Notes under the pieces: model-generated
Databases searched by the model: none
Seen by the model: only the letters and a program-made list of their open reading frames with translations
What the model was told of the DNA's origin: nothing
Assembly: GCA_008632985.1 (NCBI GenBank)
Contig: QPGO01000052.1
Span: 248,001 to 312,000 of the forward strand
DNA: 64,000 nucleotides
DNA from: Psammoneis japonica
Lineage: Eukaryota
Reading direction: 5' to 3'
Translations under genes and position numbers: made by a program
Shown: positions 16,096 to 63,113 of the stretch, piece after piece
Layout of the letters: each line of letters starts with the position of its first letter
Numbering within the stretch: position 1 is the first letter of the stretch

Positions 16096-17097
16096 CCTCT
16101 TACAGTCTCGCAGAGAGAAAATGATAGTGTTAAAACGGTAGTGCAAGCGTGTTTGCAAACGTTGCTGGGATTCCGCTTCTTCCTTTCGTGACGGAAATGT
16201 GAGATGCTGAGGTGCACTTGCACTTGCAATGAGAATCCCGCGCGTTTCTGCATGCAGGCAAAGCTTTCTTGGAGCGCTGTTTTCTTTCTCTGAGGGCAAA
16301 CCATGAAGAAAAGGAAGGGGGGAAGACAGGGAGAAAAGAAAGGAGAGGCAGGTCTCCCTTGGTGTGGCAGCATGTGCCATCCTCACACCTGCCAGCTTTC
16401 AGCAGCACACAAGCAGCAGCGTGAAATTTTCGAGCTCTGCTTTCTACTCAGCTCAATCTCACAAATTGCGCTGCTCTTTCTGGCAGCTGCCTGCGGGCAA
16501 GCTCAGTCACACCTGAGTGTCCTTTTAATCCACAGCCATGAAAGGGTTTGGAGCATCATTTGTGTGGAGATGAGCAGCCAGCTGCTGCAGGAGGGAGAGT
16601 GGCAAGAAGCACAAAAACAGCTTTGCTCCCGAGCCCCCCCCCCCAAATCACAAGAACCCTGGTGGTGTTGAACCCATGCCTTTTGGCTGAGAGATCACAA
16701 TGGGGAAAAGGAGCTCTCTTCTTTGCAGGCACTGACACAAAGCTGAGGCCCCATGCACAGTGTGGCCATGGCACCTCAAGGAAAGCACCTGCTTGCATTG
16801 TTGTGGATTTTCTTTTTGGGCTGCAGCAAGCTTTTGCCTGGCACACATGCTTCTCTCCTCTGGAAAGGCTTGCTGCAGCACTTCTTTTTGTCTTTTGGTT
16901 TTCTGTTTTCTCTCTTGAGCTTTCTCTCATGGATCTTGAGGCAAAAGCTTGTGGGGCAACATGCACAAGAGAACACCTGTCCCCACGCGCTGCTCTGTGA
17001 TTGTGGCACTCTTTCTTGCATGCAGCTGGCTGGGGAAAACAGAAGGAAGGGTGCAAACATCTTCTTTTGCAGTGAAGCACACAGCCACTTGCCAGCT

Positions 17098-17570
17098 CTT
17101 GGACTCTGGCCATTGTGGTGTCACAGAAGAAAGGCAAGATCTTCTCAGCTGTTGCCACACAAACATCAACAAATTGTGAGACAAACTGGTGACAAACTGA
17201 AACTTTGCAGAGCTTGGTTGAAGATTGGGCCAGTTTTGGATGACACAGCTGCACTCAACTAAGAAAAAAGCTTTCTTGGTGTGCTGCTTTGGTTCCACAT
17301 GATGTGAGCATGTGAAGCTTCTGGTTTTCCTTTGAACAATCAGTGTGTCCCCCTTTTCTTGCTTGAGACACTTGCCAGTGCTTGGACTCTGGTTGTGGCG
17401 GTTTGCAGAAAGGCAAAATCTTCTCAGCTGCTGCACAGCTAAAACTCAGAAATTGTTCAAAAAAATGGCAACAAACTGTGGCAACTGAAAGTTTGCACAG
17501 CTTGGAGAGAGGGCCAGTTTTGACCAACAAAGCCATGCTCAACTGAACAAAAAAAAGCTTTTTCTTGGCA
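17098..17570. repeat. Degenerate direct duplication of about 190 bp (17098-17282 and 17381-17570)
   Basis: Shared cttggactctgg..gaaaggcaa.atcttctcagctg..gggccagtttt..ctcaact..aaaaaagcttt..cttgg. Confidence 0.75.
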
Positions 17571-18449
17571 CTGTTGCAGAGTGTGGCTGTCACATGTGAG
17601 CATGTGTTGCTGGCCTTTTCCCACAAACAATCTTCCCCATGCACCCCCTTCCTTGCCATTGTTGACAAAAGACAGGCGGGTGAGACACAAGTTGGAGACC
17701 ACTGGGGCCATGGAGCAACAATGTTTTGTGCACAAGGAAATGGCAGCATGTGGAGTGTCCTGCCACCATGGTCATTTTGGGCTAGAAAGTGACTTGCTCC
17801 TGGCCAGCCACTTGCTCCTGGTTCCTCTGTTGCATGAGCTGACCATTTTTCATTTTGAGTCATTGGCGCCTTTTGAGTGCAAACACTTTGTTTTGGTTTT
17901 TTTGTGATCTGTGGTGCCATCAAAAGTGCCTGTGGTTGGAAGCACTGCTTGTGTGCATGGGATGGGATGGGCTCAAACTCTGCATGGCACACCAGCAAAA
18001 TGGTGCATTTTTAGAGTTTTTCATCCCCCACAAGCCAGACCAAGCAGCCATCTCTGTGGTCAAAGTTCTTGACAACAAGAAGATTCTCAATCCTCCTCTC
18101 CTTCTCTGTTCTTTCCTTTTGTGCATGCACAGTTGGCCACACTGCCCTGCACAGACAAGCACCAGCTCCAAGTGAAGCAAGACAAGTGGACAAAGATGGC
18201 TTCCATGCATCAGCAGGAGCTCCCATGAGTTCAACCCAATGTGGTGCACAAAATCTTTGCAAAGTGTGGCTGCAACCACAACATGAAACAAGACACATCT
18301 TGTGTGCCCAATCTCCCCCCCCCCCCCTCTTTGGGAAGTGGAGTTTTTGGGTTGCTTGATGCTGAGCAAGGGGTTTGGCCTAGAGACTTTCCTTTAATTT
18401 TGGATGCTTGGGCTCAGAAGCAGCTGCATTTTGGTGCCAGCATCAGTTT

Positions 18450-19820
18450 TTTGAAGGAAGTTGACACCCCATCATTGCCCTGTGCCAAATGGATGCCTCT
18501 CTCTCTCTGGACATTGATTGCCCTGCTGGCATCCCCCTTCTGCAAAGAAACAATGACCTGCACCATGCCAAGGACATTGTTGCACTGGAATTTTGCAGCT
18601 TGTCAGCTGAGCCACACCAGTCTTGCTGACCCCCAAACTTGCTGCATGGATTGCAAACACACTGCTCTGTGCCAGTTGCCATGTTGTCCTGGTGCAAAAG
18701 CTGAAAAGTGACCACAGCAAGTCCCACCTTCATGGTGAGTTGCAAACATGATTTTGACATGTCACCAACAGTTGTCAGTGTCACTTTCACTTCAACATTG
18801 TCTGTCTGTGCTCCAAAAACTGCATCACACCTGGGTGCTCCAACACAATCACTCCAAACACATGAGCTCTCAATTGGTTGGCCTTGTGTGAACAAACCAA
18901 AGGAGGAGGATGACAGTTGGAAACCATGTCACCTTGCACCATGTCAACTGCTTCATCAACATCCATGGCTCACTTCATCTGACTCCACCTGCAAATGATC
19001 ATTGTCATCATTGAGCAAAGGACAGTCCTTTTTTGCATGCCCAACCTTGTTGCATTTCCAGCACTTGATCTGCTTTTTCTCATTTTGCACAAAGCTTGTG
19101 CCCTCAGGTTTCTTGTTGGCCCCACATGTGTCCAACACCTGCAGCACCTCCTCTTCTTGGCCAAATTGGGACAATTGTCAATCTCCAGTGCAAAAACTGC
19201 TGGTGCAAGTCCTTCAAGATGTGCTGACATTCCTTTTGCACCTTCCATCCATGAGCAGCACTGCTGACAACTTGTTCCTTTCTTTCTTCCAGGTGGCATC
19301 AGCATCCTTGCTGAACCCATCTTTTTTCTTGGCAATTCTTTCAGGACAACCCTTCTGCAGCACCACCCTTCTGCTGTCTCAACAATCCTCATCTGCTGAT
19401 TGCAGCAATTTTGAAGCACCTCTCCTTTGTTCCAAGGAACAAGTGCCAGCTGCTTCCAAGCTTCAACAGCCTGAACATGCAAGCACACTCTTTTGTTTGC
19501 ACTGAACAAGATCAACTTGAGAATTTCCAAACTGGTGCCATCACGCCCAACTCATTTGTGACACTTGCAAACTCCGTCACTCCTTCAACCTTGTGATTGA
19601 TGGCCTTCATGCACTGTCCCACAACACAATCAGTGAGCACCCACATGGAAATGCGCACAGAAATCTGTGATGCTCCTGAAGCATTTGTTGAGGGACATCC
19701 ACAATCCAATCGGCATTTTTGCCTCAAATTTTGCAGCATCACTTGCTGCCAGCACCATCTGACATTCATTGACATGATTGTGACACCCACATGTGCAGCA
19801 CCCAACCTCCTCTTGTTCCA
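18450..19820 (-). mobile_element. Copia-like retrotransposon remnant (gag zinc knuckle plus RT-like fragment)
   Basis: IKCWKCNKVGHAKKDCP CCHC knuckle near 19020-19070; segment 18610-18830 is homologous to 29890-30080. Confidence 0.6.
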
Positions 19821-21369
19821 CAAGGAGAAAGAGCAATGTGTTTGCAGCAGTTGGGGTCTAAAGTGCTGTGAGATCCAAGAGAGCTTTCGTGCTCAAGCCA
19901 AAGCAGGCAAAAATGAACCTTGTGCTGGTTGATGCATGCATCTGCAACTTGGAGGCAATTTGGAAGAAAGCAGAGCAATGGAGAGATGTGGCACTGGCGA
20001 ACCTGGGAATGTCTTGATGATGCAATTGTCAAATTTGGGTCAGGCTCCTGTTGCCAAACATCATTGGACCATCAAGCAACTGTGGTCTTTTGATGGTGGC
20101 AAGAAACCCTCTGCACCACTGCCCTTGGCAAAAATGACAGCTCTGATGAAGGCAGTTGACCTTCAACTCTTTATGAAGAAGGGACTCTTCATGAAAGAGA
20201 GTTCCAACAAGCAACACTTTCACTGTCTCAGTGTCCCAATGAAATCATTGTTGACAGGAAAGACAAGGATGTCACCATGCAGTGAGCGCAAAGATGCACT
20301 TGACATGCACAGGACATTTGCAAAGCTCCAAAAAGGAGAAGCATTGCACAACAAAGAGCGTGAGCCTCCTGAATCAATGGAGTCAGATGTGATTGAAGAG
20401 AGAGAGCTCAGGATGCACAGCAGAAGCTGTCACTCCTCAAACAAAGCAACAGGATGAGTGTGCACGGGAAGTGCAAAGCTGAAGCATCTGATGCTGGCAT
20501 GGCTGAGCCTTTGTGTGATGACCATGATGTTGAAGACTTTGCTGCAGATTTTCTTGACTCAAACTCTGCTTCTCATTGTCAAGAACTTGCATCACCCAAA
20601 TGGCACACTGACAATCCAACAGCATGCAAAGATGTGTTTGGCTTTCACACTTTGGAGGAGATGAAACACAGCATCTTCTGTTTCTTTGTGATGCACCAAT
20701 TCTTGTGTTTCTGACATCCTTTTTGATGGAGATGACAGAAAACTAAAGTGCAATCCAACCAATCTGACACAACTCAAACAGCGGCTGATTGCAAAGCACT
20801 TCATGCAGCGTTGCCCAGTGCACAAGATTGCTGGGTTTGCTTTTGGCATGTCATGACATTCGTCAAAGAGATGCATTGAAAAATTGGTGGGCCAAGCATG
20901 GAGAATTTCTTTTGATTCTCTCCTTGAGCCACATGATTGCTTTGACAAGGAAGTGCCAGACAAGTTCACCAAAGTGCTGCTTGACTTGGTGGTTTTTCTT
21001 TTTGATGGAAAAAACACTCCCACAGAAACAAAACACAAAGATGATGCTGCATGTTGCACACAAGCCAGCTCCAAAATGCACTGTTTGGCACTGCAGTTTA
21101 TGAACTTTGTCACAGCATGTGCACTCTCAAATGAGCACACTTGGGTGTGCAGGGCTGGAGCAGATGAGAACAAATTTGTGTTGTTGAGTGGTGGGTGCAG
21201 AGAAGAGAAAGCACCAACAGAACAGTGGAAAGACTGTGTCGCGCATCATGCATTTCCGGCACCGCAGTGTGCTGAAACATTGGACAGCACTCAATGATTT
21301 GGAAGCAGTCAGAGATTTGCTTGATGCTTTGGTTGAATCAATTGACAGAATGGAGTCAGATGGCAAAAC

Positions 21370-21736
21370 TGCACTGTGCTCGAAGAACGAGTGTAAACGA
21401 AAGTAGAATAGTGTACGAAAAGTGGAAATTATGAGATTGGATTTTACTCTGTGATTTTTGGTTTCTCCGAATGAGTTCTCAATGGCCTAAAGCTTCTGTG
21501 CTGCTTCTACAGACAAAAGGCCTTTCGGAGAATATAATCGTGACAACAGATAGTCCGAATACGATTGCTTTTGACACATAAGATGTCAGCATCGTCTATC
21601 GATCGCATTTGCGATTTTCGACTTCCGATCAACTCTGTGTGATCGTTCTGTCCTTCGCACGCATCCACGACTGTGGCACGATTGACATGTAAATAACACA
21701 TAATCACACATATGCACACAACAGTCGCATGCTGCA
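21370..21736 (-). repeat. 3' LTR of the gypsy element (TA-converted copy)
   Basis: Ungapped alignment to 25637-26003 with 14 substitutions. Confidence 0.95.
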
Positions 21737-24700
21737 TTCGCCTCCCTAATTGCACATTAGAGTCATTTGTTAAGTGGATTATTCGACGGATGTTGACAGT
21801 GTCAACAATGTCTCCACGTTCACTGCATTGTGCCATCAGTGATGACTGTTGTCGTTTTGTGTGGGCCATGTGGGGCCGTTCCAATTTCTGAATGTCTCAT
21901 GAGAGTGACATCGTTTGTTTCTCACTTTGTGTGTGTGCATGTGTGGTGTTACGTCGAGTGTTCTCGTTGACGTTCTTTGTTGACATGAACACAAGGACCA
22001 ATTGTCCTGCAGTGTTTTTCATGATGTCGATTGTACCTGGCATTGTGCCCAGTGCTTGATGTGCGCTCTTTTAATTGTTGTGGCGTTCACTTTGCTTGTG
22101 GAGTTCATGCAGTTCTGGCTGGCTAACTTCACATGTGCCACATTGCTCTGCTGCACTTCCACGTGTCGTAAGCAATTGACGATGGTCAAGGACATTTTCT
22201 AACCATTTCGTCTTGACAATCCTGGGATGGTCATGGACTCCTTTGTGGATTTCTTCATTGCTTCAACCATCTTTCCTTTGGATTTTGATCGTCATTTGGA
22301 CGTTTCTTTTTTGACATGCCGGTGACATTTCGTCATTCCGAAGGCACTGCTTTTGTGCACTGTTCGGATGAATGTCCATTTTTGTGTTTTGTTTCTGAAT
22401 CTTTGGCACATCTCGTGTGACGTCATTTGTGTCTTGCCTTGCACATCGTACATTGCAATCGTGCGGGTGCTGTGAGATTGTCTTTTGCCAATGTGAAGCA
22501 GGCACGTGTGATGTGCACCAATCTGTCACTGATTTTTTCTTTAACCGTCCCCAAACAAGGCGATTTTTTCCTTATGACATGAGCATTTTTGATCTCGCTC
22601 GCCTCCACGAAAAGTGTTCGTATGACATGTCGCGCCCGACAATTTGGAGGAAATGTCTTTGTCCCGTTTTGTTCAGTGTCGAGAACTTTGCAATTTAACG
22701 GAAAGACATTGTCGCAGGATTTTGGTGGGACCTTTTCAGCCAACTCTTCTGTGCTGAGGTTTTCCACAGGTTCTATTTTTTTTATGGCAAGTCGGCTGAT
22801 CGCTCTTGCGACGACGTTCGCCTTGCCCTCGATGCATTTTATTTCGGGACTGGAATTCTGCATTCTAAGTCGTCAACGCATGACTCTGTCCGTTGTGTGT
22901 TGTGAACCGTGTGTGTGACAATCTGTTGGCCAAACAGTGTGTTCCGGGAATTGTTGAGTGTTTCCACTGTGGACAGAAGTTCTTTTTCCGTTGTGACTTG
23001 AACATTGCAATGCCATGTTTGACAATGACATGGTTTTTGATGTGATGCGCTCCACATTTTCGGAGACTTTTCGTTCTGTACTTGTCCTTTTGCCGTTTGA
23101 CCTTTGTTGAGGTGGATTTGGCTAGAAATGTACAGGAGATCATTGAGACTGCATGTCTTTGTGGCAGCAACATGTGTGGACAAGCTGTCGCAATTTTCTT
23201 TGCGTTTTGCTCAATGTTGCGATTGCCAGAATCGCCTCCATTTTCTTTGTAATTGGATGCACACCGTTACGTGTGGAAGTCTTGATAATTTTTTTCAAGT
23301 TAAGCAGTGAAGGACTTTTGTTTGTCAACCTTCAAAGCGACTGTTCTGGTCGTGTGAACGCCGTTTCAAGTTTTTCTTGTGCAGGTGACATTTTGAAGTT
23401 ATTTTCTGTCAGGTGTAAATGTTCATTCTTAGTCGTTCTGACAACTCCAAACCTGCCATGAGTTCACTCATGCGTTGTATGAAAATACATGGGGCTCCAT
23501 GGATTCTTGTCGGAAGTCTGCAGCACTCATTTTCCCCCACGGCATCATTCTGATGTGAGCACGACGTGTGCTTTTTGATTTTATATCGTGGTGTTCCATG
23601 ATTGAATCGTAATTTCATTTTTAAAACTTCAATCTTTCATAATTGGTTAAATTCCTTTCAAATGAATGCCTCCAAAGACTGTGACAGGAGAAGGTTCTCA
23701 CACGTCGTGGAATCGCGTCAGATTTTTTCACAGCGAGATCCATTGATTCTTTCAATTCATTTGTCCAAGGAACTTTTCAAAAGGATTTCAAACCTCTTAA
23801 GAAGGAGACTGAGTGGTTTATCTTCTTTTGGTTAAGATGTATTGCTGTAGCTGTCACTTGATTAGAATCGACGGCGTGATAATGTGAGTCGAGAACCATC
23901 GGTCTCGTTATTAACTCTATTCACCGCGTAATATTTTTCAATGTGATCGGCATTCAGCTGGAACATTTCTGTATCGAAGAGTGCATCAACATTCTTCATA
24001 GGGTAATTGCTTCATTCCCATTTGATTTCTTCAATTCCGTAGTCTAGTATGATTGCAAAACTGGACATTAAGTCGCGTCCCATGATCATATCATTCGACC
24101 TTGAAGGGTATTTGGTGTTATTGACATATACTGTTTGAATATCAGTAAGTCTTAAATTCGCGTACTGAGAACTGAATTCGGTGTTTACTATCAGTCGTAA
24201 AGAGCTCACCCTTGGTTTCCCAAGTTTTTTGGTGGCGGATATCTTGGTTCTCAACTTTGCACGATTTTGCGTAAAATCATGGGCTGACGATGTTCTTTAT
24301 CGAGAGAACACGTAGAAGCTTATTTTTTGCTTTTCTCAGAGAAGTAGTCATATAGACAGCGAGAATAGGACTCGTATAACATACTGTGATGCTTTTTCTG
24401 GGTTTCCAGACGTCCTGTAACGCGTTATACTCCTTGAGCGGTATAAATTTTTGATCGGACTCGATCGGGTCAATTTTTCTAAATTGATAGTTTTATTCGT
24501 TAAGCGTTTTAGAGTCTTAATTTTCGCTCTTATTTTTACGTTCCTTTATCGAGGAACTCGCTTTAATTGTTTTTGTGAACTGCCTAGTTCATAGTTCAGT
24601 TCAATTCCTCTTTCACAGAGGTATTTCTGCTCTCGTCACGTTCGCGTGCGATTGCCATTTAGAGCGTCGTATTTTTGGGTCTCTTTTAGAGCCACCCTTG

Positions 24701-25636
24701 CACTCTTTCGCTAATTCATTTTCAGAATAGCTTTAATCCGTGATGTAGGTATTCTTTTTTCAAAGATTGGACCTTTTATTCACTTTGGATTGTGGTGGTA
24801 CCATATAGGAGACCATTTTTGGAACCAAAATTGGAACCTTTTTGATTGTGGAATCAACTGCGCTATCAGAGCCCGAATTGATATGTTTTTTTGTCATAGA
24901 CGTCCTTGCCGACCTCTAGACGACTCAAACCTCAATCAGCTCGTAAAGGGTATGATCCAGTAGTTCAATATTTTGGACAGTAGGCTGATGCTGCCATCCT
25001 TGCGGTGCGAGTGATAGCTGATAAATCAGCGCTCGGTTTCCCGCTAGATTCGACTTAGAATCCATCTGAGGGTCGTATAGACTCTCATCGTTGACCTCTT
25101 GGGTCTATCAGAGGCTTTCTTGCTGTTGAGCGGCTCTGGTTTCTTCAGGTCGTCTCGAAAATAATTTCCCTGATTCTGAAGTGCATTTCCTCGGAGGACA
25201 TGAGTTATGAGACGCTTGAGGTACTTTCCAACGATTCCCTCTTGCTCCTTGGACTCGAGGATCATCGATTCGGTCTCAAAAAACTCTCCAATAGTCTCTC
25301 CTTGCATGGTAGACGTATTTCTCGGATCTGATCGACTCGGAACTTGCATTCTCTGCAACCATGACTTGGTGTAGATTTTTTGATAATGCGGTGTACTTGA
25401 GAGCCCTTGATCCTTGGGTGCTTGGAATAGACCGTATTAGAGCGAATCCTCTTGTTTGGTAGACGAAAAACAGCGTTCCATCTTGAGGTACTGCTCGGCT
25501 TGAGCTTCTTCCGCTCGGAAATCGATTCCAGCAGAACTGATGCGATTCGTTCCTGTTTATAGAAGAATTTGCAAAGGCACATTAGTTGAAATTTTCATTT
25601 TCCGTACTTTTTACCTTCTGTGGTGTGTATACACAA

Positions 25637-26003
25637 TGCACTATGCTCGAAGAACGAGTGTAAACGAAAGTAGAATAGTGTACGAAAAGTGGAAATTATG
25701 AGATTAGATTTTACTCTGTGATTTTTGGTTTCTCCGAATGAGTTCTCAATGGCCTAAAGCTTCTGTACTGCTTCTACAGACAAAAGGCCTTTTGGAGAAT
25801 ATAATCGTGACAACAGATAGTCCGAATACGATTGCTTTTGACACATAAGATGTCAGCATCGTCTATCGATCGTATTTGCGATTTTCGACTTCCGATCAAC
25901 TCTGTGTGATCGTTCTGTCCTTCGCACGCATCCACGACTGTGGCACGATTGACATATAAATAATATATAATCATATATATGTATATAACAGTCGCATACT
26001 GCA
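25637..26003 (-). repeat. 5' LTR of the gypsy element (TA-retaining copy)
   Basis: Ungapped alignment to 21370-21736. Confidence 0.95.
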
Positions 26004-26217
26004 AAACAGAAAATGGCACAACCAAACACACTCAAGCTGTTGAACATTCTCAAGAGTCTGGAAATGCCCCTGTCAATCACATGAGTGCAAGCAGCCAAAA
26101 AATTGAATGCTCTGAGAAATCTAAGAACAGCAACAACTCTTTGAGCACTGATTGCGAGTCTGACTGGATGGACATGACCAATGGCTGGAGTGAAAACAGC
26201 ATTGTGACAATGTCCTC

Positions 26218-26790
26218 TGCAGAATCCAGCACCAACAGTGATGGCCAGGAAGTTTCAAAGTGTGACAACATTTTTGTCAAGTGTGATGAATGGCTCATTG
26301 AAAGAGTTGGGACAGTTGTTGAAAAAGGAGAAAGCTCAAAGATGCTGGAGTTGACAAGGTTGCATTGCTTGTCAGTGAAGACCAAGCCTTGTTGAGGTTT
26401 TAAATGAAAAGGCATTGGCTTGCTCACTGCAAAATGATCCAGAGTCATTTCTTCAGCAACTTGAGCCATTTAAGAGACTCTGCAGGCTGTGCAACTCTTG
26501 GCCACTGCAGAATCCACCACCAACAAGGATGGCGTGAAAGTTTCAAAGTGTGATCCTGTTTTTGCCAAGTGCAACAAATGGTGCAATGAAAGAAATGAGG
26601 CTGTTTGAAAAAGGAGAAAAGCTCAAAGATGCCAGAGTTGACAAGGTTGTGTTGCTTGTCCATGAAGACCAAGCCTTGTCTGAGCTTTTAAATGAAAAGG
26701 CATTGGCTTGCTCACTGCAAAATGATCCAGAGTTGTTTCTTCTGCAACTCAAGCCATTTGAGAGACTTCACAGGCTCTGCAACTCAAAGG
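26218..26790. repeat. Tandem duplication of about 288 bp within the DDE pseudogene
   Basis: tgcagaatcca..aagtttcaaagtgtga..gaaaaaggagaaa..ttttaaatgaaaaggcattggcttgctcactgcaaaatgatccagagt occurs twice. Confidence 0.85.
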
Positions 26791-27288
26791 CCATCTCTGG
26801 CAAAACATGGTGAGTGCCCATTTTGAAATGAAAAAGGAGCATTGCTGGGATCTTCTTTGCTGGATGGGAAGCAAACTGACCCCACCAATCTGCAGAATGC
26901 ATGACCCTGAGTTGCCTCCAGAGGTCCACTTGTGCCTGCACAAAATCCTGCCAAACAAAGAAGAGCTCAGCAACAAAGGATCTGAGAAGACAGAGCACTG
27001 TTTTCCACATTTCCATTGAGTGTGCATGCCTCAAGTCTTGCCACCACAAACCATCAAACAACAGCATGACGAGCTTGAACTTGGAGACAAGAAGGATGTT
27101 TGCAGGGCATGGCTTCCAATGATGGTCCCTTTTTCTTGGCTTGTTGCTGTTGATGGTCTCCACAACAATGCCCCACACCATGAAAATCTTTGTGTCATCA
27201 TTCCACACATGTTGAAATGGGGTGCACATGGAAATGAGCCTTGGAGCACCACTCCAATGGCCAGGAGGGGCTGACAGGGGTCTTCCTG

Positions 27289-50826: not shown

Positions 50827-51194
50827 GGCCTTGCACGCGGCATTTTGATGTGTTTCAGGACAAACCTGTTGTCATGCGTGGGACTCCTTCTTCAGCTGGA
50901 AGACAACAGTTCTTAAATGCAGACAATTTGTGACAGACACACTCATTTGTTCAGCTTGCGATCAGCAGCTGGCTGGGCTTGGCCCCGCAGCCTTGCTGCC
51001 TGGGTGGCGCAGCCAGCAGCTGTGCACTTCCCGCTGGGTGTCTTGCCTTGAAGCTCTTCACAAGCTTTTTCTTGACCAAGCTCTTCACAATGTTTCCTGG
51101 TTTTGGCGCTCATCTTCTGTGCTGCAGAGCGCGGTGCTGCCGTGCTCTTCACCTTCAGAGGGCTGCCGGACGGGCTCCAGCCCTGGGCGGGACT

Positions 51195-52660
51195 TTTTGT
51201 GACATTGGGCCCGCAGAATTCTACGTGCGAGCTCCGCATTGCAAAAATTTAATTGATGGATGCTTTCATCTTCAACATCAAATGAACGACCAAGTTTGTG
51301 GCACAAGTGTGGCCATTGCCGCTTGACGTTTTTGCAAACGCGCCTGCCCTGCCCCATTCTCAAGACATTTGCGAATGGCGCAGAAGAAAAAAATGTCAAA
51401 AGTTGTTGGACGGATCACTCAACAAGTGCACCACAAAATGACACCAAACGTGGTGCGACCCAAAAAACTCTCGATGTCACAGCTCAGCGGTGCGAGGTCC
51501 CACCTGACGTGTTCCAGCCGCGCGCGACCCAAGTCGTGCACAAAAACGACATTTGCGTGATTTTTGCACGGTCTCTGACTTGCGAACAGTTTTTCACCAC
51601 CGAAAGCACAGATTTGCTCAAATTCTAATGTTTTGCAACACTGACAAGACTCGTGTGAGTGTTGCAAAATCATTGTCATTGTGCCATCAATGTTTTTCAT
51701 TGCGACAAACGAGTCGCAACACAACGGATGATTTTCGGCGAAATCATTGCCGTCACTTGGATGTCAACTGAGTGCGTCTTTCTACAATGCTTTTCAGTGC
51801 ATTTGCTGCTTGCAAAGAAATTTCTGTGTGAAGAGTGCGGATGTGCAATCAGCGCTCAGTCTGCTGAGGAAGTTTGTGATGCACGTGTCATGAGGAACTC
51901 GACACCCAACAAAAAACTGTTCAATTCTTCACAATCATGCATGCTCTGGATGCCTGTAAAAGCCAATCCGCCTGAGCATTTTACATGAAAATGCTGCATG
52001 CACTGAGAGATGCACGATTCATGTTCAAAATCGATTGTCGTTTTGTGTGTCACCTGGGACTGGAACACGTCACCTGGAGCTGGAACGCGTCGCCGGCAGC
52101 CCTCGTGCAGTTGGGGGCTGCAGATGTGGAGACCAGCCTTGCGCTGGAGAGCAGCACAGCCAAGCTTGTGGGGCCAATGCTTTCTGTCTTTGTTCAGTCT
52201 CATGTGGCACCTCTTGCCCAAATGCCATGCTTGGTGATGTCCTCCGCCAGCGCAAATTTTTTGGCACCTGGGTTGCCAGCCAATGAAGGCCAAACGACAA
52301 CGTTTTGTGACTTTTGGCCCGCAGAATTCTACGTGCGAGCTCTGCAGTGCAAGAATCTAATCAATGGATGTTTTTGTCTTCAACATCAAATGCAACGGCC
52401 AAGTTTGTGGCACATTTGTGCCTGTCCACACTCGAAGTTTTCGGTTGTCCGCCTGCCCTGCGCCACTCTAAAGACATTTGCAAATGGTGCAGAAGAAAAA
52501 AATGTTAAAAGTTGTTGAATGGATCGCTCAACAATTGTGCTGCAAAATGATGCAAAATTCCACCAAAGTCACGTAGAAATGTGTGTGCGCGACATGCGGC
52601 GCGATTCAAAAAACCATCCACGTCACAGTTCAGCAGTGCAAGGTCCCACCCAGAGCTGGA
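51195..52660. repeat. Dispersed direct repeat of about 330 bp (51195-51520 and 52303-52660)
   Basis: Shared cccgcagaattctacgtgcgagctc..tcttcaacatcaaatg..ccaagtttgtggcaca..cgcctgccctgc..gcagaagaaaaaaatgt. Confidence 0.85.
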
Positions 52661-55357
52661 ACATGTCAAACAGCCCTCATCTGCTTTGACATGATTGCAA
52701 CTTTGTGCGCCCACCACCGCATGTGCTCCCCACAAGAATGACACTCACACAAATCCCAGAGCACTTGGTCAGAATTTTGGCATTTTTTGGGCAAGTGCAC
52801 AAAACATGTGCGCAGCCAACGGCATTTTGAGGCCTTTTTCTGACCATCTTGGCTGGTGTGAAGATCCAAGGCTGGCCCTGTCTACCCCCCCCCAGTCAAT
52901 TGTTTTGGATTGTGCCCACCCTTCTTGTCCAATGGAGTCTGTGACAGAGCTGCAAAGCAAGCACTCTTGCACACTCACAATCGCAGCAACTCTGAGCTCC
53001 CCTCTTGAGCCCACAAGGACACCACACACAAAGCAAAACACGAAGTGGCCAAACGGAAAGCAAGGACACATGAGGCAACACTCAGATTGATTTTCAGCTC
53101 TTTGCCCAAGAACAACAAGGCCAGAGCTGTCAAGAATGATGCCAAAGCAGGAGCATGGCTGTCGCGCACAACCCTTTGATGCTGAGCTGCACAGAGCTCT
53201 TGTGCAAACAGCTCTGCAGTGTTTTTGTTTGTGGTGCAGCAAGGCCTTGCCTGATCTCCTTGAGCACTGCAGTGGATGTGGGCACAAGCTCTTTGCAAAC
53301 CATGCCTTTCAATGTGGGGAGGGCATGGCTGGGTTGTTGGGCGGCATGACAAAGTGAGCGGCAACCCAAGTGGCCCAGTTGGAGAGGCTTGCAGGCTGTC
53401 CTGTGCGAATGACAAACCTGCCATTGAGAACCCTGCTGTTGGTCATGTCATCTTGGCAAGCCCAAGCAACTTGGGCAATCCATCAAGTGACAAAAGTTCC
53501 AAAGTGCCCAAGGATGGCAACTGTGGAGATGTTCCAGCATGCAGACTCTGGGGCAGAAGGGCAGACATGGTCATGGTTGTGGATGTCTGAGCTCCAGGCA
53601 TGGGTGCAGGCAAGATTGTGCCCACCCAAGGCACTGGGGCAAGCTCCAGCAGACCATGAACAAGATGAAAAGCACAAGCAATGAGAGAAAAAGTGCAAGC
53701 ACCTCAATGAGAGAAAAAGTGCAAGCACCAAGCACCTCGCGCCCCGCCTTGAGCAACGTTGCCACTTTTCTCCTGCCCTTTGCAGCACCAGGATGCCCGG
53801 CAGAGAGAGGCCAGAGAGGTGCTCTGAACAATTGCTTCAAGGATGCTTGACAAGCAACAAAAGCTGTGCTTGGAGGTGTGTGGCCACGCTGATGCAAGAA
53901 TGAGCACCGCACAATGGCAAGGGCAGCCCTGCAGCATTGCCGCTGCCCAGTGGGATCGTGCACTCCCTCATCTCAGAGCTGATGCTGGTTTGTTCCTTTG
54001 GAGCCACCAAAGGACCTTGCTTGTGCTGAGCTCCACCTGCAAAAAAATGATGCTGACCCGCTGTCCTCAGACACCATTGACAACAAGCTCCTGCAATGGC
54101 CAAAACTGCTGTGCGCCAGCATGGCGGCTGCTGTGGTGTGCCAAAGTCATCTGCTCTTGAGTGCCGCATGAACAGATGACAAAAAATGCACACAGAACCA
54201 CCCCTCACTTGTGTGGCTGAAGTTTTGCCCATTTTGAGAAGCACTTTGCAACAACTTTGTTCGAAGCATGGCATGGAAATGGTTTTTGCTCAGAGCCACT
54301 TGTGTTTCCCAGGGGGTTTCAAATCAAGTGTTTGCACCAGACATCTGATGCATGAGAAATTTTCAATGTTTGCTGGCACAGACCATGCAGATTGCATGCC
54401 AGAGATGGTCCAATGCCCACGCTGTCATGCTGAACGCCATTTTTGCAATCTGTCAAACAAGCTTGTTCACATTTTGTGTCAGCAAGAATTGTGGATTTGT
54501 GGTTGTCCAAAGTGTGCCAAAAAATTGATTGTGCAATGATTCAAGGCAGGTTGGCGCTGTTTCAATTGTCACAGGTGCTTTCACCAATTTTCCTGCTTCT
54601 TTTTTGTTTTCACAAATCTTTGTCCATTTCAGAAAAGTCAAGGGCATGGAGCATTTTTGTGGTGATCTAAGTGCAATCACGTTGCTGTGGGCAGGAGCTG
54701 CAATCCTTGCCAGCGTGCGCTGGGAATGAGTGCATGCAACCGTGTCAGCTTGTGCAGGAGACAGGTCAGCAGGTCAGCACTGTCTCTTGTGGGCTTCTGC
54801 TGAACAATGGGGAAAAAGGGGCCAAGACAGGAGATTGCAGAAAAGGTCAACCCGCTTGACCGACACTTCAACATGTTTGTGCTGCACAGCTTGCACTGGC
54901 TGCTCATCTCATTTTGTTCCCAGTTCTTGAGCTGACCAACATCAGAGTCAGCATTTTGACTTCATTGTCATGCGTCACCCACTGTGTCTGCTCAACGATG
55001 CAGCTGGAGAGTCTTCTCCTTTCTGCCATCAGATGCAGCTGCTGCTGAGCAAGAAACATCTCCTCCTCAACCGCGCAAAGAAATGCTTCAGCTTTGTGAA
55101 CCAGCTGCAATTGTGGGTGCAGCAGCAGAGGAAAGAAACTTGGATTCAGCCAATCGGAGCTTTGCGATGAAAATTTGAGCTTCGCACACAAAAACACGCA
55201 ATTGTCTCCAAATTTGCAGTGAGCAGTCTCACAGTGCACCGGACGCGCACGCAACGCTCCAAAAAATTTGCTGGGGGAGCTCTGAAGAGACACGGATTTT
55301 TGCTTTCACTGCACGCAATGATCGCAACATCGCAGCCGTGATGCAACACAACACCGC

Positions 55358-57655
55358 ATGCAACGCGCATCGAGTCAATTGTGCCTTGACAGCATGGAGC
55401 CGGTGACAGTGTCTTCATTGAAAGATGATCCAAGGAGGTGGGGAGAAAATGATGTGTGCGTTTGCAGCTGGGGTGATGCACGCCGTGAGATTCAGAAACA
55501 ATTTTGTGCTCTTGCCGTTGCTGGAGATTGTGAACCTCACGCTGGTTGGTGCAAGTGACTGCAGCTTTTGGGAGACTCAGAGAAACAGTTGAAATGGAGA
55601 GGTGCTGTGCTGTTGAACCTTGGCACATCTGAAGATTTGGTTGCCAACATGGAATCGGTCCCGGTCGCGAGACAGCATTGGACGGCCAGACAGTTGGAGT
55701 TTTTTGACAAAGGCAAGAAAGCATTCACGCCCCTCCCTGCAACAGAAATGAAGGCACTTGCTGTCACCTTTGACCAGCAGTTTGGCATTGCAAAGAAAGG
55801 AAAGAAACACTGTTTTCATTGCCCCAACGTGTCAAAGGAATCACTTCTTGCCGAGACAGCAAGGTCGCCGCGCGATTGCCACAAGGAAGCACGTGATGAG
55901 CAAGTGGCATTTGCAAAGCTTGGCAATTGTCATCAGGCTTTCAAGGAGCGCACACTTTCTGATTTCATCAATGAAAATGAAGGCTCCAACAAGGAAAATG
56001 ACAAACCAGCACTGGCAACACCAAATGCATCATTGCAGGGAAAGGATTTTGCAGTGTCAAATGAAGCTCAGGCCAAGGTGAAGTGCCTGAAGGGAAGCAA
56101 GCGGACAGCAAGCTGCAGGAAGCGCAAAGCCAGCAATCCTCCTCCTCCTTCTGAACCTTCATTTGTTGCTGATGAGGTGGAAGATTTCTTGACAAATTTT
56201 CTTGACAGCAACTCGGCGTGTTGGCACCAGCTGACGTCAAGAGAATGGCGTGCCAACAATCCCGAAGCAGCCAAGGACTTGTTTGGATTTCAGTCTCTTG
56301 ATGAGGCAAAGCGGTGCATGTCTGCATTCTTTGCTGATGTGCCTGTGCATGTTCCAACAATCAAGTTTGTTGCCAAAGAGAAGAAGCTCATGTACGACCC
56401 GCCGGATCCCACTGCGTTTGAACAGGTGCTAATTGTGAAATGCATTGTGCGCCACTGTCCAGTCGGAAAGACAACGGGACGGGTTTTTGGGGTGGTTCCG
56501 ACTGCAGCGTTGAAGCATCTGAACAAGTGGGCCCCATGTTGGGGCAAGCATGGCGAGTTTCTTTCTATCTTGCCGACACCTCCCGACCATTTTGACAAGG
56601 AGCTGCCGGATGAATTTGTTGAGCAGAATCTTGACAAAACTGCTGTGTTGCTGGATGGCAAGGACACGCCAACAGACACCATGCGGAAGGATGATGCAGC
56701 ACGTTGCAAACAAAACAGCAACAAGATGGGCTGCTCCGCATTTCATTTTGTGAATTTTGCATCAGCGCGCACATTGTCGCATGAGCACACAAGGGCGCAT
56801 GGGGCTTGAGTTGATGAGAAACGTCTTGTGGAGGTGATCGGTTCATGCCAAAAGAAGAAAGCTCCCATTCATGAGTGGAAAGACCATGCCAAAGAAAACA
56901 AGGTTCAAAAAGAGCTCAGGCACTGGATGGTGCGGGATGACTTGGTGGTGGGGAAGGAGCTGGAGGAAGCAGTGGTGGCGACAGATTCCCACAAGGCTCA
57001 GGAGACGGATGATGCAAACAACAGATGGGCCAGTTCTAGAGTTGTTGAGTTTTCAGATTTTGACTTTGGGCCCAAGAGTGATGACAGCAGCAGTGAGAGT
57101 GACCAGAGTGGCCCCAGCAACACCGACTGCAATTCGGACTCGGAAAGCATCGCAACGGCCGCCTCCTCTGCTGCAGATGATCTCAATCCGAAAGATTGTC
57201 AACACATTGTGGATCACATTGACAAGTGGTTCAATGAGCGGCTGGAAATTGTTTGCATGGATGGAAAGCTGTGCGAAGCTGGCTTGGACAAGGTCGCGCC
57301 AATGCTGAGCAAGAACTGCAACCAAATGAAGGCCATGAGCAAGAAGGCGCTGCATTTGTTGCCCCAGAACTCTCCGGAGAAATTGCTGCAGCAACTTGAG
57401 CTGTTTGAGAGACTGCACAAGTTGCATGACCAAAACACAATTAAAAGGTGCATCCTGAGCGCACACTTGGAAATGACGAAAGAGCTCCAATGGGATTTGT
57501 CATGCTGGCTTGGCAGCGAGTTGAAACCAGGAGGTCGCGTTTTGGACAACAATGGCGAGGCTCCCAGGGATGCATTTTTGCGCCTGTGCAAGATGCCACC
57601 TGATGAAGATGGTCTTGGAGACAAGGGGTTTGAGAAAACAGATGTTTGTTTTGGC
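55358..57655 (+). pseudogene. PIF/Harbinger/ISL2EU-like DDE transposase pseudogene, copy 2 (3' truncated)
   Basis: Possible THAP-like N-terminus (CVCSW..KWR..ARQHWT), HTH-like region, VLLDGKDTPT and GLGDKGFEKT; in-frame stops. Confidence 0.75.
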
Positions 57656-57858
57656 TGAAGAGCGGTCAATGAGCTCTTTGGCGGATGTGTTGGATCCGAC
57701 ATCACACACTGTGCCGCAACATCCTTGTGACAGTTCTTGTGCAGCCAAACTGAAATGTTGACCCCAAGTCTCTTTCCTTGGGCGTCACTGAAGGGAATGG
57801 AGGGTTGAGCATTGACAGGGCCAAGCGCCTTGAGCCACAGACCTCCGATGCCCATCAT
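57655..57858 (-). pseudogene. Exo1/XPG N-terminal fragment, copy 2
   Basis: MGIGGLWLKAL..GKRLGVNISVWLHK matches the XPG-N consensus MGI.GL..G..AVD...WLH. Confidence 0.78.
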
Positions 57859-59766
57859 GCGTGATGAGTTGTGTCATGGTCGCTGCGTTGCAAATCTCGT
57901 GCGAAGCAAGGAAAAAATCGGCAATTTTTTCATGTTCGTGGCCGATTGAAGGCAAAGGGAAAAAAGGAGGGGATTCCAACAGTTGAACACACACACACAA
58001 TTTGACCATCATCAGAGGCCGCAATGTGGTGTTGTTCACTTTCCTTTGGAAAAATCGGAACATTTGATTTGATGAAAGCACGGCATTGTCAGTTAAATTC
58101 AATTTCAAATGCAATGGTCAACTTGAATTTGTTGTCACCTTTTCATGTCTGCAATTGTCACCGTTTTCTTTTGAACTAAATTCGCCAAGGACTGTCAACA
58201 CATCTTTTGTTGTTGAACAATGCATTTTGTGTTGATTGATTTTTCACATGTTTGTTGAAACGTTAACTTTGACAGTGCTTTTCAACAGCTCCACCGCAGT
58301 CTTGCGTCACCACAGACAATGGCATTTCTTGCACGCCCAAGTCGGCCACGTGATCACCTGGCTCATCATTTCCACCTGCACTTGCCAGTTTTCCAGTCAA
58401 CAGCTCCCTGCCTGCCTTTTGGCGCCCACTCTACATGCGCAATTCTCTGCCCATTTCATGACAGCACACCCTCTCCCCAAAAAGCATTTGACAAGAGGGT
58501 GTGCTGTTGTGGCTCCTGCACATTCTACGTGAATCGGCGTCTGACTGTTGGCCATGGCGTCCAATGACTTTACCCCATCTCACGATGCATGGATCGTTGG
58601 GTCGATGCATCTTTCATTTGGGATCTTTTTCCAATGTTGTCATGAAGAGGTTGACACATTGGTTTGGTTTTCTGGGGGGCTTTGGTTTTGACACACGGTG
58701 CAAACGGTGACGTGCCTCGACTTGTGACTCGATTGCTGCAGTGCACGTGTGACACATGAATGGTCGACAATGTCGTGACGGCAAGTTCTCTTTGTGTTTT
58801 CTCAATTTACATCGTTTTCCTGTTCACTGAAGATCATTGTTGTTTTTTGTTGCAGCACGCAAGGTCGATTGATCGTCTCGTACGGTCGATTGTTGCATCT
58901 GTGATGTTGGTGTCTTTCTCATGGTGTTTGCACCACCACAGCATGTCCATTTGGGAGCCTCATGCTTCATCTCACTCTTTGCCCTTTGGCGCATCTATTT
59001 GCGCTGTTTGTTTGCACTCGTGACGAGCTTGGTGTGTTTTTGGATGTCTTGGTTGGCTCGCAATTGCAGCATGTCGTTTTTCGGCGACAACAATTTCTTG
59101 ACAGTGCACACCTTCAGAATGAAACGATGCGAATGAGCATCGAGGACACCTGTGGCGCTGACATTTGTCGTGCACTCGCACCACAAACCAAAGCAGCTGT
59201 GGCTGTGAGCATGTTGTGATTGTTTGAGTTTTGAACTCGTTTTGACGAAACTCGCATGCCTCGCTAGTGTTTTTTGGTGTGTCCACTTCAAAGTGCAGGC
59301 ATGTGGTCTGTGACAACCCTTTCTTCCTGCTCTGCAAAGGCATTGTCATCACCATCTAAGACATTGTGTTGCCCACGCTATTTTGGGAGATCTTGGCAGT
59401 GTGACGACTTGTCTGGGCTTTGCAATGGGTGAAATGGGGAGGTGGAGGCTTGCATGGCTGGGCTCCTCGCCTGCTCTTGCATGCGTTGATGCAGCGAACC
59501 GCTGGTGTCACTTGGTGCCAGGAAATTTGGCAGGGCGACTCAGAACTGACTGTGAAAGGTGCCCCAGTGAGCACACTGTGACATGCAACCCCAATGGATT
59601 GTTGTTGTGTGCGTTGTTCCACTCACATTTTCATTTTGCATGTCATTTTCCAGTGTGACTGTCGTTGACCGTCAAAGCTTGCAGCGGCATTTCCAGGCCC
59701 ACATTCTACATGATCAACATGCTTTGATGCTCTTTGCTCACATGGGGAAATCAGATCCTGGAGTGC

Positions 59767-61240
59767 TCAGTTCCTGGTTGGATCTAGACCAGAGATGTGT
59801 GGCTGTTCGATGAAATGTGGGATGGAGTGTGGGCACAAGCTCTGTTGCTTCTGGATGGCACGCACCACATGCGCACTGCAGAGTGTGTGTGTGCACCATT
59901 TCAAATGATGCTTGCCGATCTGCCATTCCAATGCACAGGAAAGACATTTCTCCAGCAGAAGTGGGGAGCACGGTGCCGGCAGTGCGTGAAAAGAAACACA
60001 GTGATGAAGACGGTGCCGGCCTGAGCGCAGAAGTCTAAAGAATGTGACCATCTCAAGATCCTCATGCCATCCTTTCTGTTGTGACTTGATTTGCTCTTTC
60101 ATGTCTCGATCGATTTCCTTGGATGGACATGAGGAATGGAGAGCATTGTTGATGTGCTTTGATTTGGTGAGCTTGGAGCACTTTAGATGCTCATCGTCTC
60201 GCACTCCAAAATTTGCATTGGCACCTGAATTCTTTCCCGACCTGGCGGGTGTGCAGAAGTGACACAATCCACAGGCACCTTCCTTCATGCAATGATCTCC
60301 AGTGCGCTTCTCAGACTCTGCCTTTGGTTGGAGCAACAAGGATGCAGCACCACTCCAAAACTCAATGTTTGGGAGGACATGGCCGCGGCTGACCATCATG
60401 GCCACCATCAGCGGCAGATTCTGTTCTGCCCACTGGAGTGTCCAGTGGTTGCGGCGAGTGTCACAGTTCTTGAGTTGCTGACGTTTGTGTGTCTTGAGTC
60501 GTTGCATCAGAGTCGGAACCAACTGAGCGGTTTGTTGCATTTGCTCTGGACCAAAAGACATGAAATCGTCTGCAACCTTGACCGCACTTGCTTGCCACAT
60601 CGGATTCTCACAGAGAGGATGCCCAACCTCATGGTCAGCAGGATCAACTGGAAGGACAGGAGCAGGAGCTGTGGTCTCACTGGGCAGTTCCTTTTTTCAC
60701 AAATGACAGGAAGGCGCCGAGCCTTGTAACTTGAGTGGATGAGCTCATGAACGAGTGAAGTCGGTGGGGAATGGAACCGCCTGCCGGAGTTTTTGTCATT
60801 CTCAGATTCATCCCTTGCCTCCGCCAACATGCCTTTGTTTGCACAAAACTTTGACGGCTTGTCTTTCATTGATTGGAAGAAGCGTGCATTCACAAATGAC
60901 TGCAACTGTGAAACAGCAAGTTTTGCGTGCATGTCGATCGATGCCTGTGCCACAATTGGCCCGTCTGACTCATCCACAACTTGAAGACTCTCATCGCTGC
61001 TCATCATGTCCAGCATTTTAGATTCCGCTGCCGCAGCTTCATCATGTGCTTTGTTGTGCGCTGCAATTTCACGGACAAGTTTTGCCTGCTTCTCAGCCCG
61101 CAGGCGATCCTGTCGTTCCTTCCGGGCTGCCCTTTGACCAGCAGAGTTAAGAAGTTTGGCATGCTGCATGTGATGCTGCACACCAAGGAGCCAAGCAGCC
61201 CAGCTCAGCTTTGAATGGAGCCCCAGGACAGCAGCCAACT
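59767..61240 (-). pseudogene. Degenerate coding remnant, probably TE-derived, unclassified
   Basis: Consecutive same-strand ORFs with protein-like charged helices (ARKERQDRLRAEKQAKL); no family recognised. Confidence 0.4.
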
Positions 61241-61489
61241 CTGGGTGATTTCAGCATGGTTTGCTTGTTCAAGCTGTGCTGCACTCACCCCACAATGCTC
61301 TGTGTTGTGGTGGCTTCTTGTCGCAAGCCATGGCTGAGTCAGCAGCCAGCCAGGACCCATCTTGCAAAGGCCACACACACATGTTGACCCTGTGCAAAGC
61401 TGTGTGAGGGGCCAGGTGCAGGAATTTGAAACAATGGCTTCACAGCCATTGGCCCCAAGTTGTCATTTGGTTGGGAGCCATTGCTGAGG

Positions 61490-61730
61490 GGCTGTGAAGT
61501 GTGGGGTTGCAAGCCCAGCCAGGAGCTCACACTCTGTCACAAAGTGCTGCCACAGCTGTCTTTGCATTGCAGCCAGCCAGGTGTGGTTGACCCCAAGTTG
61601 GCACTTGATTTAGAGTGACTGTCAAGGAGCTGTGAAGTGTGGGGTTGGGCAGTCCAGCCAGCTCACACTCTTTGCTGACAGCAGAAAGAGCTGTCGCAGC
61701 TGTCCTTGCATTGTGGTGCCAGCCAGGTGC
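61490..61730. repeat. Degenerate tandem repeat, period about 138 bp
   Basis: gctgtgaagtgtggggttg..ccagccag..ctcacactct..cagctgtc.ttgcattg..gccagccaggtg occurs twice. Confidence 0.75.
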
Positions 61731-62979
61731 ACACATGGCCAGAGCAGCCTTGGCACATCCCGCTGACAAAGCTGGCAAAGATGGCGACTCTTGTGGTTGA
61801 GCCACCCAGCGTGCAGGAAATCTGGGCACACTCCTGGGAAGTCAAATGGGAGGAGGGCTCAGCATTGCCACCAGTGGCCGTGCCAGGCACAAATGTCAGC
61901 TTCTCTTGAGAGAGATTTGAGCCCACACAGCCCCGAGTTGGGTGTCTTGGCTGGCAAGTTAGAAAGCATTCTTGAGCACATTTTGGGATGTGGGCAGCAC
62001 TGTCACCAAGAGAGCTGTTCTGCAGAGGAAGAGGGAAACAGGCAACAACATTTTGCAAGAACTGTTTTGTGTCAATGGCCGGGTGGGATGGGGCAGCATC
62101 TGGACTTTGACGGAGCATTTGGTGGACAAAGCTTGAGCACAGAGAGCTGTCCACTCAAGCTCCACAAGTGGCACATTTCAAAGGTGACACCAATGTGTTC
62201 ATGCATCAACATGCCTCAAGCTGCAAGTCACACAAAAAACCACCACCAACCTTTCTCAACCAACCACGATCACAGACAGAACAGGTCAAGAGGTTCGAAA
62301 CAAGAGTGATTACTTCATTGACTCTCTTCTTGTTTCATGCATTCAAGAGCTTGTTCTTGTCCTTCTCAAACGTTTGTTGTGCATTGTTGTCTCTTTTAAT
62401 TCAAGTGCAAAGAGGAGCCACTTTTCTTGTTTCTGTCTCTTGAGATGTTGTTGGTTGTTGAGTGATGCAATTTTTGTTGCTTGTCACATTTTTGGAAATG
62501 TTGGCAAACCCGATCACTGCTTGATTGTCGACCCATTTGCTGTTTTGAGTCTCCGTGGCATAAAATGCCACAATTCCAGAGCCCTCAATTGTTTCATCAA
62601 ACGCAGTGCTTTGAAACACGTCCAACATCAACTCGACTCAGTTGAAATCCCAGTTTGTGGGCGATGAAAAATCACGAATGTCAAACAAATGACTGCTTTC
62701 GACATCAAGATCCCCGAGTTCAATCCAAATGTGACGGCGCGCCTCACAGCTTGTGGCCATGACACACACAAGCATGCCTCATTGTTGTCATCGCGTGCAC
62801 TCGCATCGAAAATGCTGATGGATCAAAGTTCAGGAAAAGGATGGAGTGCAAATTCATTTGTGCACTCACCAGAGTGGCATTGGCGCAATGACACCCACGG
62901 CAGAAGCGATCAAAAATCCTTGTTCATCATTGACATTTCTGCATTGCTCAGAATTTGAAATCTGACCACCACCGTTGAG

Positions 62980-63113
62980 CATTTAGCTTTCTTTGTGTCG
63001 AAGTGGAAACGACACTTGACGATTTGCACCAACCATTTAGCTTTCTTTGTGTCGAAGTGGAAATGACACTCAACGATTTACACTAACCATTTAGCTTACT
63101 TTGGCTCGAAGTC
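62980..63113. repeat. 54-bp tandem repeat x2.5
   Basis: catttagctttctttgtgtcgaagtggaaa at 62980 and 63034, partial at 63088. Confidence 0.9.

Follow-up and report, generated by a model that had tools for sequence, protein, structure and literature searches.

The mutational processes that, to our knowledge, are directed at repeats or edit DNA, i.e., repeat-induced point mutation (RIP), AID/APOBEC and the decay of 5-methylcytosine (5mC), all attack cytosine. RIP exchanges C for T, mainly at CpA, in duplicated sequence, where both copies of a repeat become mutated, and the changes made in a single RIP event are strand-coordinated. Polymerase eta has the motif WA to WG (W, A or T) and thus targets both TA and AA. 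Thymine hydroxylation by JBP/TET proteins, which yields 5-hydroxymethyluracil and base J, occurs preferentially at TpA in certain protists and is tied to repeats or silent DNA, and oxidised thymines can mispair with G and thereby give rise to T-to-C exchanges. We know neither of a natural double-stranded-DNA adenine deaminase that serves genome defence nor of a report of an extreme mutational footprint left by thymine hydroxylation. Here, we analyze a stretch of 64,000 nucleotides from the eukaryote Psammoneis japonica (assembly GCA_008632985.1, contig QPGO01000052.1, positions 248,001 to 312,000 of the forward strand), in the following called the window, in which four transposon-rich blocks have lost nearly all TpA dinucleotides and carry TpG or CpA in their place. 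A full-text literature search, judged from listings and the opening parts of abstracts, yielded no description of a repeat-directed mutation of TpA to TpG or CpA.

Four blocks with strongly reduced TpA

Dinucleotides were tallied across the single 64-kb window in steps of 1 kb and 200 bp. An earlier note on this DNA had claimed that about 35 kb are nearly free of TA and that the flanking host genes have an ordinary TA content, and both statements hold. By their outer limits, the four blocks comprise positions 16140–21369, 26004–30589, 35819–48677 and 50486–63037. Together they contain 120 TA in 35,227 bp (3.4 per kb), compared with 1018 TA in the 24,139 bp of the host flanks (42.2 per kb). At host density about 1,490 TA would be expected in the blocks, which corresponds to a 12-fold loss, and in the most depleted parts (A, C, D1 and E2, see below) 95–97% of the TA dinucleotides are gone. 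Block A (16140–21369), in which some 12 TA had been reported for the 5.2 kb from position 16150, contains exactly 12 (observed/expected ratio, o/e, 0.033) and is also almost free of CpG (35 CG, o/e 0.118). It is the left portion of an old transposon cut by a later insertion, and block C (26004–30589), which holds the rest of that element, has the same composition (12 TA, o/e 0.037; 28 CG, o/e 0.110). The third block consists of two parts. D1 (35819–46800) lacks both dinucleotides (37 TA, o/e 0.048; 50 CG, o/e 0.083), whereas D2 (46801–48677; GC content 55%) is TA-free but CpG-normal (11 TA, o/e 0.117; 139 CG, o/e 0.976). The fourth block is divided into E1 (50486–52600), where CpG is nearly normal (16 TA, o/e 0.123; 114 CG, o/e 0.852), and E2 (52601–63037), where half of it is lost (32 TA, o/e 0.049; 301 CG, o/e 0.464). 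The extensive CpG loss in A, C and D1, 20.8 kb in total with o/e values of 0.08–0.12, had been missed in the earlier note; by its pattern, it is a trace that CpG methylation leaves behind over a long time.

In the host segments (1–16139, 30590–35818, 48678–50485 and 63038–64000), the o/e values are 0.51–0.63 for TA and 0.89–0.99 for CpG. The open frames in these segments are long, and their Pfam domains are ordinary ones (SNF2/RING helicase, TMEM151, PAP2_C, amino-acid kinase, protein kinase and GNAT). Host intergenic 1-kb windows likewise have ordinary TA (o/e 0.46–0.98), and the loss of TA, which is confined to the transposon-rich blocks, is therefore no general property of non-coding DNA. 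The borders are sharp and can be placed within 50–300 bp: at the left end of block A the final host TA is located at position 16139 and the following one only at 16445, and at the other borders TA returns at 30590, ends at 35818 and returns at 48678 and at 63038. At two edges (16140–16280 and 35819–35863), the TA-free zone extends about 45–140 bp beyond the CpG-poor zone. The edge at 16140 coincides with the presumed start of the amino-acid kinase gene, such that the promoter region of this gene lies within converted DNA.

The total of pyrimidine–purine steps (CG, TA, TG and CA taken together) is the same inside and outside the blocks, with 242 per kb in the host and 239–249 per kb in the blocks. 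From the host to A, C and D1, CG falls from 54 to 5 per kb and TA from 42 to 3 per kb, while TG plus CA rises from 146 to 230 per kb. As the total remains constant, TA and CG became TG or CA by transitions and were not lost by any other route. In addition, GpC is increased and ApT decreased in the blocks, just as exchanges of R-T-A to R-C-A and of T-A-Y to T-G-Y predict (R, purine; Y, pyrimidine).

Timing, direction and sequence context of the conversion

A young long terminal repeat (LTR) element of 4.6 kb (21370–26003, plus strand) is inserted between blocks A and C. Its LTRs (21370–21736 and 25637–26003) have a length of 367 bp each, and AAAC is found on both flanks. Neither gag nor pol domains were detected when its open reading frames (ORFs) were compared with Pfam, and the element is probably non-autonomous. 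The LTRs are identical at 353 of 367 positions and differ by 14 transitions and not a single transversion. In 13 of the 14 cases one LTR has TA where the other has TG or CA, and the last difference is CpG versus TpG. The right LTR contains 31 TA, and at the same sites the left LTR has 18 TA, five TG and eight CA. Nine of the 13 conversions cluster in the final 50 bp of the left LTR and run on into a 2.1-kb internal tract that is partly converted (21690–23800; TA o/e 0.27, CpG o/e 0.86), while the other half of the element (23801–26003), which directly adjoins block C, is unconverted (TA o/e 0.75, CpG o/e 1.16). The LTRs were identical at landing and now differ at 13 TA sites, and it follows that the conversion took place in chromosomal DNA, once the element had integrated. 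The element is also a natural time marker, since it inserted into DNA that had already been converted.

The direction of change and the independence of individual copies emerge from a transposase family that is represented twice in the window. For pairing old copies, the window was compared with itself in a purine/pyrimidine coding that is blind to transitions. The first part of copy 1, a transposase remnant on the plus strand (19587–21369; tblastn E 1e-60), and its second part past the nested insertion (26009–26974, plus strand) are colinear across the insertion site with positions 55158–57925, and blocks A and C accordingly are one old element split by the 4.6-kb LTR element. Copy 2 is a 699-codon frame (55559–57655, plus strand) that is interrupted by one TGA at a position where the family has a conserved arginine. 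The two copies align over 2525 columns; they agree in 1495 of these and differ by transitions in 663 and by transversions in 367. For copy 2, 239 homologs were retrieved from a library of 1.84 billion proteins, the best of them an 866-aa protein (E 4e-69), and 99 homologs of at least 250 aa were aligned. Seven columns carry tyrosine in at least half of the homologs, and copy 2 has retained none of these residues: it has cysteine in two, histidine in three, phenylalanine in one and alanine in one, although it keeps the consensus residue in 101 of 154 other columns. Among ten consensus arginine columns, five are still arginine in copy 2, one each has become Cys, His, Gln and Ser, and one is the TGA stop. 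Copy 1 also lacks tyrosine at the conserved columns, and in columns 85 and 344 the copies have opposite products, cysteine in one and histidine in the other. The homologs have an ordinary tyrosine content (median 3.0%), and three metagenomic relatives have an ordinary TA content (o/e 0.33–1.05). At the nucleotide level, TG and CA are discordant between the copies at 85 sites and concordant at 230. The loss of conserved tyrosines, the opposite products, the normal tyrosine content of the homologs and the TA content of the metagenomic relatives together mean that the ancestor contained TA and that each copy was converted separately. That paralogs within the window show TA in one copy and TG or CA in the other, as had been stated before, was borne out by the repeat pairs; the direction from TA to TG/CA is now polarised by the outgroup proteins (Tyr to Cys or His), and a TA-free ancestral element is contradicted by the tyrosine columns, the discordant sites and the metagenomic relatives.

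The label "Harbinger-like", which the earlier note had used for part of the transposon DNA, stands as a lead for this transposase: in an Atlas feature search with homolog P0016, which compares features and not alignments, the nearest ESM-Atlas clusters all carry DDE_Tnp_4 (scores 0.93–0.94, 192–208 shared features). It did not receive support from Pfam, which reported no domain, DDE or other, in the copy 2 ORF and in 11 homologs, and a word-indexed homolog search with positions 55559–56806 returned nothing. The family looks like an unannotated branch of the PIF/Harbinger superfamily. A conserved cysteine-rich N-terminus and the motifs DGKD and DKGFE are visible in the alignment of its members (homologs P0016–P0165).

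The conversion follows a context rule. AA is not depleted in the blocks (o/e 1.04–1.50). The residual TA dinucleotides (n = 118) are distributed very unevenly over the four contexts, with two in RTAY, 14 in RTAR, 32 in YTAY and 70 in YTAR, compared with host fractions of 0.31, 0.24, 0.27 and 0.18, respectively. Survival of trinucleotides in the blocks gives the same picture (13 TAT against an equivalent of 271, 22 TAC against 301, 25 TAG against 248 and 60 TAA against 198). RTAR and YTAY sites, which are susceptible on one strand only, are converted to about 94%. In the young element, 12 of the 13 LTR conversions conform to the rule "A before Y, or T after R", according to a site list read by eye. 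Strand-coordinated clusters, the mark of a processive single-strand deaminase, were sought by runs tests and not found: TG and CA do not cluster by strand in any region (z −1.6 to +1.3), nor at the 85 sites that are discordant between the transposase copies (43 runs, 43.4 expected). The signature is therefore TpA-selective, prefers T-A-Y and arises site by site without coordination between strands. A strand bias in the young tract, considered because TG exceeds CA there (239 versus 139), was rejected, as the unconverted half of the element exhibits a similar excess (132 versus 95).

The losses of TA and CpG can be arranged in four stages. In the young tract (21690–23800), TA is partly lost (0.27) and CpG is kept (0.86). 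D2 and E1 have lost TA (0.12) and kept CpG (0.85–0.98), E2 has lost TA (0.05) and half of its CpG (0.46), and in A, C and D1 both TA (0.03–0.05) and CpG (0.08–0.12) are gone. The progress of CpG decay is also apparent from the 89 sites where transposase copy 2 retains CG, at which copy 1 has TG in 26, CA in 28, CG in three and other dinucleotides in 32 cases. Loss of TA precedes and outpaces loss of CpG and is separable from it.

Proposed process and rival explanations

We consider it probable that a real process acts at the level of DNA in transposon-rich, presumably heterochromatic domains and converts TpA to TpG or CpA after insertion. Elements would insert with ordinary TA and be converted later, in the chromosome, by an A-to-G transition at TpA on one strand or the other, with the strand chosen at random for each site. 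The process works site by site and favours A before a pyrimidine (T-A-Y or, equally, T after a purine), sparing AA, CA and GA. It outpaces the decay of methylated CpG, which follows in the same domains, and its outcome is irreversible inactivation: tyrosine codons turn into cysteine or histidine codons, the stops TAA and TAG disappear, and signals that contain TA are lost. The sequence itself demonstrates the signature with its direction and context rule, the conversion after insertion and separately in paralogous copies, the sharp limits of the domains and the separability from CpG loss. We infer that an enzyme drives the conversion, because spontaneous chemistry would hardly be so selective for TA over AA, come so close to saturation and proceed faster than the deamination of 5mC. 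The process also appears to target repeats or silent chromatin and may represent a RIP-like genome defence. Candidate chemistries are the deamination of adenine in DNA and a mutagenic mark placed on the T or the A of TpA, for example an oxidised thymine mispairing with G; whether adenine or thymine would be the base attacked is not distinguishable from sequence. A polymerase eta-like process (WA to WG), also suggested before, does not fit the undepleted AA. In its most specific and, in our view, rather unlikely form, the proposal would involve a homology- or chromatin-guided enzyme, either a natural deaminase of adenine in DNA or a mutator that modifies thymine, which would edit TpA in double-stranded DNA and permanently disable new repeats within a few generations, before cytosine methylation.

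Is the signature present in the DNA at all? Native long reads with modified bases at CpG and TpA might have been miscalled as transitions and the errors not removed by polishing, with TA and CG still present in the true sequence. Every change seen here is a transition at one of two palindromic dinucleotides, and the sole stop and the lost tyrosines of transposase copy 2 fall exactly on CG and TA sites, as miscalling would have it. Errors of this kind in nanopore reads are strand-specific and biased towards A-to-G and G-to-A, according to two reports (PMC11610603; bioRxiv 10.64898/2026.01.14.699587). On the other hand, TG and CA alternate randomly between neighbouring sites, whereas switches in a consensus set by the majority strand would be expected only over kilobases, and the RTAR and YTAY sites are converted almost completely and not by half. 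The host genes are long and unbroken, and the assembly is therefore accurate. In addition, 1062 31-mers sampled from positions 14500–24499 (52% block A, 21% partly converted tract) were compared with public sequencing runs, among which no RNA run was listed. They were present with a share of 0.82 in a run of 141 million letters (X1), 0.16 in one of 30 million (X2) and 0.00 in one of 1 million (X3). The value for X1 exceeds the ceilings of both artefact models, 0.36 for reads that contain TA and CG and 0.66 for strictly strand-specific miscalls, with every read either all-TG or all-CA. The three shares scale as expected for uniform shotgun coverage, and the share expected for X2 under a Poisson model of uniform coverage, fitted to X1, is 0.144. 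These k-mer models assume that the index keeps words seen at least twice. A sequencing artefact is improbable on these partly indirect grounds.

Among explanations that accept the signature as real, the most serious is that it arose passively, as a by-product of replication or repair in silent chromatin (error-prone patches after 5mC-derived T:G mismatches, or a repair bias), with no dedicated defence behind it. Domains in which CpG has decayed, and which are presumably methylated, coincide with the TA-free domains or are no more than about 2 kb away, and site-by-site action without strand clustering would suit a diffuse process. However, TA loss should trail CpG loss if it were a side effect of CpG deamination, and the reverse is seen: 13 changes at TA stand against one at CpG between the LTRs, and TA is gone where CpG is still near normal. 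Nor is AA depleted as the WA motif of polymerase eta would demand, and the young element is untouched in its right half, directly next to block C. We regard this explanation as unlikely. RNA-level A-to-I editing of transposon transcripts by ADAR- or ADAT-like enzymes, fixed by reverse transcription and integration, would account for A-to-G products and for the 5′ U context that known adenosine deaminases prefer. It is very improbable, however, because the LTRs of a single insertion differ at 13 TA sites and the changes must therefore postdate integration, because both strands are equally affected, because a DNA transposon family without an RNA intermediate is saturated, and because the TA-free state spans whole nested blocks plus flanks and not single elements. 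Finally, the transposon lineages could be intrinsically TA-poor or purged of TA and CG by selection, e.g., for avoidance of nucleases or insertion targets, and avoidance of dinucleotides does occur in viruses and phages. Here, however, tyrosine codons conserved in the family are destroyed, relatives elsewhere have normal TA, copies were converted independently, and the elements have decayed to pseudogenes, each frame of which is interrupted by a stop roughly once in 39 codons (calculated from 895 TGA triplets in the blocks), such that this possibility is hardly credible.

Several observations weigh against the proposed process. One of our main reservations is that the whole evidence is drawn from a single 64-kb window. 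The assembly itself may have been made from the sample behind run X1. Taken by themselves, the LTR differences would need an outgroup to be polarised, and their direction is deduced from their position in the TA-poor tract and from the shared context rule. The discordance between the transposase copies is an imperfect test: double transitions at other dinucleotides (GT/AC, 22 of 86; GC/AT, 38 of 152) are as frequent as those at TG/CA (85 of 315); we attribute this to their overlap with pyrimidine–purine steps, and clearly lower values (10–16%) are confined to the control dinucleotides YY and RR. Most of the block DNA is without a recognisable transposon domain. Moreover, targeting is uneven. 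Both Harbinger-like copies are saturated, and a paralog of D2 at the end of the window (63283–64000, plus strand, 250 bp outside block E) has ordinary TA and was left unconverted, in contrast to its partner in D2; the young LTR element, too, is spared in its right half, though this half abuts block C. The rule can therefore be neither "every repeat" nor "everything beside a converted block".

If the process is confirmed, genome defence would have a new chemistry, an A:T to G:C exchange that erases TpA in transposon domains, and the neutralisation of transposons in this lineage would be explained. If a guided enzyme is indeed at work, it would be the first A:T-to-G:C counterpart of RIP, and one outside the fungi. 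Searches for transposons in this lineage would have to change, since protein profiles fail on converted copies (one convincing match in 417 ORFs, see below). The signature could also lead to a natural enzyme whose substrate is adenine or thymine in double-stranded DNA, and such an enzyme is relevant to base editing. Should it turn out to be an artefact instead, it would reveal that TpA in silent chromatin densely carries a base modification not known before.

Other features and comparison with described mutators

Pfam was run on 417 ORFs of at least 55 aa from the blocks (143, 150 and 124) and on six read-through frames of D1. Reverse transcriptase, RNase H, integrase and DDE domains were found in none of them. 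The sole convincing match was a single zf-CCHC knuckle, a remnant of the gag type (18959–19177, minus strand; E 2.5e-5), and there were weak KDZ-type matches. The labels "copia" and "gypsy" given to parts of the blocks in the earlier note could consequently not be confirmed. Strings that resemble copia reverse transcriptase and RNase H motifs, but have His or Cys in the place of Tyr, occur at 39253–39783 (minus strand); they were recognized by eye and we take them as a lead only. A word-indexed homolog search with the read-through of 39121–40800 (minus strand) returned nothing. D1 also contains a pair of direct repeats 5.9 kb apart (38789–39054 and 44698–44978), detected by repeat comparison, which could represent the LTR pair of an ancient retroelement; the copia-like strings adjoin its left member. 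Further internal direct repeats are present in the converted blocks at 26217–26497/26505–26785 and at 51073–51449/52157–52558. D2 harbors an open frame of 645 aa (46667–48601, plus strand) with a segment rich in Lys and Arg and without a Pfam domain; the unconverted sequence at 63283–64000 is its paralog. In the left host segment, an SNF2-family helicase with a RING finger (Rad5/Rad16-like domain set) is encoded by two open frames (424–1809 and 2379–3428, plus strand) that are separated by about 570 bp, either by an intron, perhaps, or because the frame is broken. Neither tRNAs nor Rfam families were found in the whole window, and an exact-pattern metagenome scan with a host 30-mer from beside block A gave 0 matches. 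For a host protein, the closest match had 59% identity, and the Atlas returned no taxon.

Among described systems, RIP in Neurospora and other ascomycetes resembles the situation reported here in that it is a permanent transition hypermutation of repeats that is tract-like, sharply bounded and near-saturating, extends to some degree into flanks, destroys coding capacity and is associated with or followed by cytosine methylation. The chemistry, however, is not that of RIP, which creates TpA and lowers the GC content, whereas A:T to G:C exchanges destroy TpA here: it is removed (3.4 versus 42.2 per kb), tyrosine is exchanged for cysteine or histidine as polarised by the outgroup, and the GC content is unchanged or higher. 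Furthermore, the coordination of strands within a RIP event has no equivalent in the window, and RIP is fungal, acts premeiotically and is dependent on cytosine methyltransferase homologues of the RID/DIM-2 type. The decay of methylated CpG is likewise similar, since it converts a palindromic dinucleotide to TG or CA, site by site and on a random strand, in silenced repeats, and is itself present in the window. It differs in that it cannot remove TpA, and the loss of TA is faster and occurs also where CpG o/e is still 0.85–0.98. The view of the earlier note that the loss of TA is unlike both RIP and 5mC decay is upheld on this basis.

ADAR, ADAT2/3, TadA and the engineered adenine base editors share with the process proposed here the A-to-G exchange and a strong preference for 5′ U or T. 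The natural enzymes among them act on RNA and ADAR accepts a 5′ A, whereas here genomic DNA is affected on both strands, AA is spared and a 3′ pyrimidine is preferred. With JBP/TET-dependent thymine hydroxylation, finally, the similarity lies in the target: a thymine modification that is enriched at TpA and tied to repeats or silent DNA would mark the very site that is converted in the blocks described here.

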